This document shows, piece after piece, positions 2,532-53,988 of a stretch of 64,000 bases of DNA. Position 1 is the first letter of the stretch; each line of letters begins with the position of its first letter. This DNA comes from Candidatus Bathyarchaeota archaeon (GTDB taxonomy: Archaea; Thermoproteota; Bathyarchaeia; 40CM-2-53-6; RBG-13-38-9), in assembly GCA_963807605.1 (NCBI GenBank), contig CAWECG010000003.1, positions 608,001 to 672,000 of the forward strand. The letters run 5' to 3'. The translations under genes were made by a program, and so were the position numbers. The notes beneath the pieces are model-generated. The model saw only the letters and a program-made list of their open reading frames with translations. It was not told the DNA's origin and made no database searches.

Positions 2532-2545
2532 GAAAAGATTATTAG
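2532..2545 (+). promoter_or_regulatory. Putative BRE/TATA promoter of tRNA-Lys
   Basis: GAAAAG followed by ATTATTAG about 25-30 nt upstream of 2566-2571. Confidence 0.4.
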
Positions 2546-2579
2546 AAGTTCATGTAGGTACCCATGGGATGGCGGGCTT

Positions 2580-2697
2580 GGGCCCGTAAACCAAGATGTA
2601 GGTTGGTCGGGACGCTCAGTCAGGTAGAGCGGTGGTCCAGACTTGGCCGAAGCTCTTAACCCAAAGGTCGCGGGTTCAAATCCCGTCGGGCCCGCCA
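2580..2697 (+). tRNA. tRNA-Lys(CTT) with two non-canonical introns (9/10: 2589-2613; 30/31: 2636-2651), CCA encoded
   Basis: Removing both introns gives GGGCCCG-TA-GCTC-AGTCAGGTA-GAGC-G-GTGGG-CTCTTAA-CCCAA-AGGTC-GCGGG-TTCAAAT-CCCGT-CGGGCCC-GCCA; both junctions fold into bulge-helix-bulge motifs. Confidence 0.9.
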
Positions 2698-2945
2698 AAT
2701 TTCTTCATATTCGAATGTATTATTGGCTTAATTTTTCCAATTTTTCATTTTGACTCCAAAGAACTCATAATGTCAGTATTCAACCTGCGACAAAGGTCAA
2801 GTGCACGCGTACGTAATATCAATGGCAGAAATCGACTGATCATAAGCGCGCGAATGAGCGTCTTCTCCGTTTCTTCCCTCAAAGATGTTAAGATGGCTAC
2901 TGCATATAGCAACTTACGAAGACTATCGATGCAGTTATGAAATCT

Positions 2946-3372
2946 CGGCAAAGGAGAAGGCAGTTGTAACTATACAGAATGTCGTCGCTACGGCAAATTT
3001 AAAGCAACACTTAGACCTCGACACTATTATAGGATTATTTCCAGGAGTTCAGTATCGGCCACGAGAGTTTGCAGGACTCATTTTCCGGTTGAAGAACTCT
3101 AAGACTTCGACTCTCATCTTCAGTTCTGGGAAGATGGTTTGCACTGGCTCCATCGACTTGGATAAGACTACGTATTCACTGAAGAAGACGATGTATGACC
3201 TGAGCAATTTTCAGGCTTGATTTACCGGATGGATGAACCGAAAGTGGTTATGCTCCTCTTCGCAAGCGGAAACTTCGTCTGCACCGGGGCGAAGAAGGAA
3301 GAAGAAGTTCACTATGCCGTAATTAAACTCCCAGTGACACTTGAGAAGAAAGAACTTATTGAATACAAGTAG
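2946..3372 (+). pseudogene. tbp: TATA-box binding protein pseudogene (internal deletion, frameshift, no clear start)
   Basis: IQNVVATANL...FAGLIFRL...LIFSSGKMVCTG jumps straight to SIDLDK of repeat 2; after a 1-nt frameshift near 3198 it continues [32 protein letters not shown]...ELIEYK*. Confidence 0.88.
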
Positions 3373-53460: not shown

Positions 53461-53988
53461 TTGATCGAGACTATCGAGGGTTACTATAGGAACGGCAAGG
53501 TCTACATTCCAGAAACCGATAGGCTCATAGAGCTTCTTGATCGAGGCTTCGGAACTCGCCGAGATAAGAGGCTTGAACTCTCACCCTACGAGACTTTCTT
53601 CCTGACTGAGAAGGGACGTATAAGAGTTATCGATAAGCATAGCGAAAGCGCAATGTCACTCCATAACCTTGTTGCCAGTTTGTCAATGGGCAAACAAGAG
53701 ATCTGGATAAGATATCTCGTCTATAGAGACCTCAGAGACAGAGGATACATCGTCCGTGAGACCAACAGAGTTGACTTTGAAATTTACGGAAAGGGATCGG
53801 AGAGGCGTCTCGTCTCCATAGTATACGAGGGCCGAGAGGCGAACCTTCAAGATCTCACCACTCTAATAAGATACGCCGCCAAGCAGAGGAAGGAGCTCAT
53901 ACTGGCTGTAATAGACAGAAGGACAGACCTAGTGTACTACTCTATTGGCGAGATAGAGTTTCAGAAGCGTCAGCAGAAACAAGAATGA
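53461..53988 (+). CDS. tRNA splicing endonuclease, structural (non-catalytic beta-type) subunit
   Basis: L.L...E..FL...G, YLVYRDLR.RGY.V, LAV.D....VYY; lacks the catalytic KY/FG Tyr loop and His. Confidence 0.78.
   Translation: MIETIEGYYRNGKVYIPETDRLIELLDRGFGTRRDKRLELSPYETFFLTEKGRIRVIDKHSESAMSLHNLVASLSMGKQEIWIRYLVYRDLRDRGYIVRETNRVDFEIYGKGSERRLVSIVYEGREANLQDLTTLIRYAAKQRKELILAVIDRRTDLVYYSIGEIEFQKRQQKQE

Follow-up and report, generated by a model that had tools for sequence, protein, structure and literature searches.

The gene for tRNA-Lys(CUU) in a Bathyarchaeia genome, which lies near one end of the DNA analysed here (64,000 nucleotides, hereafter the window), is preceded by a short element complementary to the 3' end of the same tRNA. 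Comparison of this gene with intron-bearing and intron-free tRNA genes from other archaea indicates that the anti-acceptor leader is real, conserved and tied to introns adjoining the acceptor stem, and that the association of leader and intron is not due to chance. We consider it likely that the leader is a cis-acting folding helper which makes an acceptor-proximal intron spliceable, as suggested by covariation between leaders and 3' ends and by folding predictions. By the same sequence comparison, leaders complementary to their own 3' end probably hold that end aside for intron excision in many uncultured archaea.

The tRNA-Lys(CUU) gene and its leader

Window positions 2580–2697 encode a Bathyarchaeia tRNA-Lys(CUU) with contiguous exons in the normal order and introns at positions 9/10 and 30/31 (Table 1). 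The gene was not called at these positions when ARAGORN was run on the window, and Rfam gave only a partial tRNA match at the locus; for annotation it matters that the leader resembles the tRNA 5' end. The acceptor stem (2580–2586/2687–2693) consists of 7 bp, all of them G-C, and is followed by discriminator G2694 and an encoded CCA (2695–2697). In intron-free orthologues A9 is joined directly to G10, and these genes match the joined exons of tRNA-Lys(CUU). Removal of intron 1 in silico yields a standard tRNA, and the cloverleaf of the spliced molecule can be built. The spliced tRNA has a G27-A43 mismatch atop the anticodon stem (window positions 2632 and 2664).

Table 1. Features of the tRNA-Lys(CUU) locus and the EndA subunit gene, in window coordinates
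Feature	Position	Strand	Basis and remarks
BRE/TATA promoter element of the tRNA gene	2532–2545	+	Motif fitted on 80-nt upstream regions, posterior 1.0; conserved in orthologues
Predicted transcription start zone	2568–2571	+	Most likely G2571, with T2570 as initiator pyrimidine; inferred from TATA spacing
Anti-acceptor leader element	2570–2579	+	Complement of tRNA positions 67–76; sequence, 13 other intron-bearing orthologues, isotype covariation
Exon 1 of tRNA-Lys(CUU)	2580–2588	+	Acceptor 5' strand (1–7), U8, A9; read from sequence
Intron 1, position 9/10	2589–2613	+	Missing from orthologues L013–L018 and L021
Exon 2 of tRNA-Lys(CUU)	2614–2635	+	D-arm and 5' side of anticodon stem (10–30); sequence and Rfam alignment
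Intron 2, position 30/31, relaxed splice motif	2636–2651	+	Sequence; orthologues have a variable insert there; boundary inferred
Exon 3 of tRNA-Lys(CUU)	2652–2697	+	Anticodon CTT 2655–2657; T-arm 2670–2686 (T-arm scan); acceptor 3' strand 2687–2693; G73; CCA
EndA (tRNA splicing endonuclease) subunit gene	53461–53988	+	PF01974 match at C3:661701; likely trans-acting enzyme, outside the element

The splice motif of intron 1 comprises a 4-bp central helix (2583–2586/2608–2611) and an intron helix (2590–2594/2603–2607); 3-nt bulges flank the central helix, and each splice site follows the second bulge base. Nucleotides 4–7 (2583–2586) are thus used twice, in the acceptor stem and as one strand of the central helix. 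The central helix retains 4/4 pairs in most orthologues, and the intron interior is variable. The outer exon-exon helix of a strict motif could form between G1–G3 and positions 11–13, but at the cost of the D-stem, and reaches a predicted probability of 0.1–0.4. Since the best predicted state keeps the D-stem, the motif is likely a relaxed form lacking the outer helix.

As originally predicted, the leader pairs with the tRNA's own 3' acceptor strand, discriminator and CCA, and the pairing of 2570–2579 with 2697–2688 is exactly as stated, with eight Watson-Crick and two U-G pairs (2578-G2689 and 2579-G2688). G2580 (G1) and C2687 could provide an eleventh pair, the target being 2687–2697, that is, the acceptor 3' strand, G73 and CCA. 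The register is shifted: U-1 and U-2 of the leader face G67 and G68, and pairing with 73–75 in the canonical register is possible only for -5 to -3, across a 2-nt bulge. A hairpin between the leader and the tRNA's own 5' strand is conceivable because the acceptor is near-palindromic, but it was rejected, its predicted probability being at most 0.03.

Distribution, start site and covariation of the leaders

Close orthologues of the gene are found on contigs of Candidatus Bathyarchaeia. The 9/10 intron is retained at 13 other loci of the family, each of which carries a GGYGGG(C) element upstream of G1; no orthologue was found that retains the intron and lacks the leader, the finding that would have spoken against the original prediction. 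Among these genes, both the distance from the element to G1 and the intron interior are variable. In intron-free orthologues, which belong to other families, the element is mostly missing, although two of them, in one genus, have a partial match of 6–7 bp.

Because this contrast alone is confounded by kinship, a wider search was made. The search patterns demanded an insert after position 8 or 9, left the leader unspecified and were applied GTDB-wide, to 400 Bathyarchaeia and to 300 genomes of the phylum, with a matching search for intron-free controls; the census covers genes with a GCUC/GAGC D-stem, which all patterns demand. The tRNA genes were read with our own parser, ARAGORN at relaxed score having returned thousands of false calls; L103, for its wrong 3' end, and L267, whose intron is not of the 8/9 type, were left out. 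In total, the census yielded at least 89 usable intron genes (8/9 or 9/10) and 121 controls; collapsing identical leaders left at least 66 and 118, respectively.

A leader helix of at least 8 bp with positions 66–76 is present in 48 of the 66 intron genes (among the matches listed) versus 4 of the 118 controls, counts that overstate independence because the genes are related. The proposed co-occurrence of leaders and 9/10 introns across genomes is thus borne out, with 8/9 introns included. The median energy of the leader duplex is -19.1 kcal/mol in intron genes (among the matches listed) and -5.8 kcal/mol in controls; the longest leader helix in the 121 controls measures 8 bp, none reaching 9 bp. 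The contrast holds for Lys-, Asn- and Phe-type acceptors, the Thr- and Tyr-type sets being small. Five main acceptor sequences occur across approximately eight isotype-position classes (Lys-CUU, Lys-UUU, Met, Tyr and Phe at 9/10; Phe, Asn and Thr at 8/9), and these eight classes, together with the DPANN cases, approximate the number of independent units. Furthermore, 150 genomes from the class to which an Aenigmatarchaeota genome belongs were held out as a separate sample, and four of the five new intron genes in it have the leader. Overall, the design is found in at least six amino-acid isotypes and in genomes of Bathyarchaeia, Methanomethylicia, Geothermarchaeota and DPANN; as it recurs, each time matched to its own acceptor, it points to repeated adaptation.

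The genome that contains the window has a second case, a tRNA-Thr(CGU) gene with an 8/9 intron (C3:344466–344566, minus strand), which carries a GCCCCGG leader copy at -14. In the same genome, the tRNA-Gln(CUG) gene ending at 321632 on C4, which has no 8/9 or 9/10 intron, shows a 7-base match to the 3' strand at -16; the match apparently lies within a leader hairpin and may be due to chance. In another group of loci (L264–L267 and L359), an insert is apparently located inside the acceptor 5' strand, at about position 3/4.

The position of the leaders relative to the promoter is also constrained. According to the BRE/TATA motif fit, the leader helix starts 29–33 nt past the TATA anchor in most genes, and its first purine lies 30–33 nt past it, which corresponds to the shortest TATA-to-G1 distances of control tRNAs. 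Therefore, the 5' boundary of the element appears to coincide with that of the transcript, and promoter geometry makes it very probable that the leader is transcribed. A pyrimidine immediately precedes the first purine of the helix in 40/55 genes. Opposite position 76, a pyrimidine, often C, is present in 44/55 genes, and the base there is Watson-Crick paired in only 25/55. Since this partner is so often a pyrimidine unable to pair, T2570 is probably the initiator at -1 and the transcript of tRNA-Lys(CUU) would start from G2571, in which case the U-A76 pair may be missing from the RNA. These spacings agree with the original prediction, which had placed a TATA-like element near 2539 and the start at about 2566–2571, and, judged by promoter spacing, the start does not fall downstream of 2575.

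The leader covaries with the 3' end of the tRNA to which it belongs. Leaders of Lys, Met, Tyr, Phe, Asn and Thr genes differ in step with the acceptor sequence, and the leader classes each pair best with their own 3' end, as seen in 53 of 63 genes (among the matches listed), with pair types swapping at positions 69–74. Among the matches listed, positions 70–72 are Watson-Crick paired in 55/55 genes with the helix, and positions 66–69 have G-U pairs or mismatches in 20–38% of them. Where the two acceptor strands differ by a G-U pair (L344, L351 and L352), the leader tracks the 3' strand, whereas a passive duplicate would be expected to track the 5' strand. For instance, L351 and L352 have identical 5' strands (GCCCCGG) and different 3' strands; their leaders, GCCCCGA and GCCCCAG, respectively, are each a Watson-Crick match to their own 3' strand. 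Moreover, in a Geothermarchaeota gene that lacks an encoded CCA and ends in G-U-C-A, the leader is altered to match opposite position 74, and in a tRNA-Met with A73 the leader base facing this position is U.

Eleven intron genes (among the matches listed) lack a 7-bp anti-acceptor helix, and three of the 11 have an interrupted or shorter one. In six of the remaining eight, a 14-nt leader shows better pairing with the D-loop/D-arm than any of 117 control leaders; these include an Altiarchaeota tRNA-Lys and the tRNA-Phe of one Bathyarchaeia genus. D-arm pairing of this kind would lengthen the motif's outer helix, a possible second solution; among the eight exceptions, just one is predicted to form the splice motif when the whole molecule is folded. 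Leaders complementary to the D-loop were seen among L172–L176, L213, L062, L204 and L045. The opposite situation is found in three tRNA-Phe genes (L234, L237 and L320), which have a leader copy, GCCGAGG, without a 5'-proximal intron, and whose sister families carry an 8/9 intron. These leaders may be relics of intron loss, and they suggest that cells can resolve the leader helix.

Folding predictions, proposed mechanism and alternatives

The original prediction called for folding the precursor with and without the leader. Folded with it, tRNA-Lys(CUU) has a central-helix probability of 0.87 and an acceptor probability of 0.00; without it, the respective values are about 0.01 and 0.98, and the effect of the leader is lost if the transcript starts at 2574 or later. 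The same shift was obtained with shuffled versions of the G-rich leader in 66 of 300 trials (22%), so that folding alone lends weak support and the comparative evidence carries the case. In the 55 helix genes (among the matches listed), the leader raises the central-helix probability in 54, though above 0.5 in only half, and without the leader this probability is near 0 in all 55. Thus, the proposal that the leader frees nucleotides 1–7 to form a 9/10 BHB is sustained in part: nucleotides 4–7 are freed for the central helix in the folding models, but the motif is likely not a full BHB with its outer helix, the D-stem being kept in the best predicted state.

Refolding of the acceptor stem after splicing, which had also been proposed, does not occur in the folding models. 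After in silico splicing, the acceptor exceeds 0.5 in only 1/55 genes, and unconstrained models retain the leader helix. Under constraints that are the same for the unspliced and the spliced form, the leader helix is about 6 kcal/mol ahead, and splicing shifts this balance little. When the freed strand is limited to its native partners, the median gap changes from -4.7 to -1.1 kcal/mol, the values for tRNA-Lys(CUU) being -1.1 to -1.3 kcal/mol. If the first three leader bases are removed, the cloverleaf becomes the favoured state, the balance going from -1.3 to +7.8 kcal/mol. Release through removal of CCA by RNase Z was considered and rejected, as it restored the acceptor in only 13% of genes on folding. 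Release of the leader after splicing is therefore at most plausible.

The following sequence of events can be proposed. An intron at 8/9 or 9/10 needs nucleotides 3–7 for its central helix, and these bases, as read from the sequence, are normally locked in a 7-bp G+C acceptor stem. Transcription would begin on the leader element, as promoter spacing indicates, and the leader would pair with 66–75, replacing the 5' acceptor strand and leaving nucleotides 1–7 free for the intron, whereupon EndA would cut; covariation and folding both point to this step. Until the true acceptor stem forms, both RNase P and RNase Z would be blocked, and the intron would be out before 5' processing. With the intron gone, nucleotides 1–7 would displace the leader, probably entering at 66–69, where pairing is weak; this is the weakest step of the model. 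Cleavage by RNase P would then make the displacement irreversible, tertiary folding and that cut together constituting one release route; alternatively, a first RNase P cut could fall within the mimic helix. In a minority of genes, the D-arm-pairing leader seems to serve this purpose instead. In its full form, the model states that archaea repeatedly evolved a two-state pre-tRNA switch, in which a leader that starts with the transcript acts as a mimic of the 5' acceptor strand; 8/9 and 9/10 introns that could not otherwise be spliced would thereby become removable, and splicing would have to precede RNase P. The D-arm design would be an alternative, and release may need an extra step, such as an RNase P cut in the mimic helix. 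We consider this complete version about as likely as not. If true, it would explain the introns adjoining the acceptor stem, a region that reviews call intron-free, and would give a sequence-specific job to tRNA 5' leaders, which are usually deemed disposable. It would also predict an order of processing reversed with respect to the end-trimming-first order in Methanopyrus.

The leader might instead act mainly as a brake on end maturation, its pairing with the discriminator and CCA keeping RNase P, RNase Z or the synthetase off the unspliced precursor, while the splice motif forms transiently without its help. The pairing does reach 73–75 in most genes. Furthermore, bacterial RNase P is inhibited by leader-RCCA pairing (PMC9433436), archaeal RNase Z needs both the acceptor stem and a mature 5' end (PMC7479834), and Methanopyrus normally trims the tRNA ends before intron removal (PMC3695527), which would lock the acceptor stem. 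However, the invariant core of the helix, 70–72, is located inside the acceptor stem, 74–76 are often unpaired, and several leaders span only 66–73. The near absence of the central helix from all 55 leaderless folds also speaks against a motif that forms unaided, and leaders of the D-arm type make no contact with the 3' end. A role primarily as a brake is therefore unlikely.

A functionless leftover duplicate of the tRNA 5' end, derived from the intron insertion event or from a local duplication, would account for L035, L116, L189 and L282, the leaders of which are exact repeats of nucleotides 1–7 or 1–8, and for the three Phe genes that keep a leader without an intron. Yet many leaders reach 73–75 and cannot be derived from a copy of nucleotides 1–7; changes in the leaders are mostly C to U opposite G, so that pairing is kept; and the element, which sits at the predicted start site, persists while the flanking leader, the spacer (1–15 nt) and the intron interior diverge. 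With the leader following the 3' strand wherever the strands differ, this explanation is largely refuted and we consider it very unlikely. It is less probable still that the upstream copy is the real mature 5' strand, or borders a tiny acceptor-stem intron, and that the downstream copy is removed. A helix resembling the acceptor and stacking on the T-stem can indeed be made with the upstream copy, but this copy is degenerate (G-U pairs, mismatches and a variable spacer), whereas nucleotides 1–7 are invariant and identical to those of intron-free orthologues; moreover, in tRNA-Lys(CUU) it lacks an in-register U8-A9, and no splice motif was seen around the spacer. Finally, the G-rich segment could be conserved as an initially transcribed region for transcription initiation, its complementarity being incidental. 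Its location at the predicted start site, the preceding pyrimidine in 40 of the 55 genes and the frequent G-richness of archaeal tRNA leaders (PMC3695527) would fit, but the segment changes in sequence with the acceptor of each isotype, and intron-free genes under the same promoter type do without it, which makes this the most improbable explanation of all.

Genomic context and comparison with known systems

The genome encodes two single-domain EndA subunits, identified by PF01974 matches at C3:661701 and C4:303386, the NCBIfam endA-like matches falling below curated cut-offs, and it also contains an archaeal RNase P RNA gene. Immediately after the EndA gene in the window comes a histidyl-tRNA-synthetase-like ORF. 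At 2885–3330, a short distance past the tRNA, a paralogue of TATA-binding protein (TBP) looks broken: a 111-aa frame covers one repeat, and the second repeat runs on in another frame. At least five further TBP genes are present in the genome. On the minus strand, at 188–2487, dph5, a small unannotated ORF and a FAD-synthase-like ORF diverge from the tRNA promoter, and a riboflavin kinase gene converges on this group.

By their sequence features, the introns of tRNA-Lys(CUU) belong with the archaeal non-canonical BHB introns, which, in the parts of the sources considered here, are known from Thermoproteales, Caldiarchaeum and Asgard (PMC4090602, PMC4033280, PMC10485636; Asgard census 10.64898/2026.10.13.758758). 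Like these, they are short and presumably protein-spliced, their motif borrows exon bases, two of them occur in one gene and the genome has a two-subunit EndA. Unlike in the reviewed cases, however, they include positions adjoining the acceptor: 8/9 and 9/10 are not among the positions named in the parts of the reviews considered (PMC4090602, PMC4033280, PMC10485636), where no leader helper is mentioned either, and the corresponding part of PMC10485636 describes archaeal tRNA introns as placed almost everywhere but in the acceptor stem region. Searches of the freely accessible literature turned up no account of an anti-acceptor leader, which accords with the original remark that such a switch was not recognised as described.

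In split tRNAs, known from Nanoarchaeum, Caldivirga and Staphylothermus, and in permuted tRNAs, known from Thermofilum pendens (PMC3218864, PMC4090602), sequence outside the mature tRNA likewise base-pairs so that EndA is provided with a splice motif. In these systems, the leader pairs with a trailer, belongs to the motif and is cut off by EndA (PMC3218864), whereas the partner of the tRNA-Lys(CUU) leader is the mature 3' end of the same transcript, and this leader is not part of the motif and would act by displacing a competing helix. A split or trans-spliced tRNA was rejected for this locus, as the exons are contiguous within 2580–2697 and the leader pairs with mature positions 67–76, no trailer being involved. 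A permuted tRNA was likewise rejected, as the exon order is normal and the upstream element is a complement, not a copy, of the 3' end.

Pairing between 5' leader bases and the 3' RCCA is also known for bacterial RNase P, which it may slow (PMC9433436). In that system, -1 and -2 extend an intact acceptor stem. The leaders described here differ in that 7–11 of their bases take the place of the 5' acceptor strand, the register being shifted and the arrangement tied to an intron; the leader of tRNA-Lys(CUU) does not fit an RNase P anti-determinant of the extended-acceptor-stem type, since U-1 and U-2 pair with G67 and G68 and not with RCCA. In Methanopyrus kandleri, the ends are trimmed first and the introns removed last (PMC3695527), and the model proposed here would need the reverse for an 8/9 or 9/10 intron. 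Compared with these systems, the intron is of a known kind, and what is new is its accessory element, the anti-acceptor leader.
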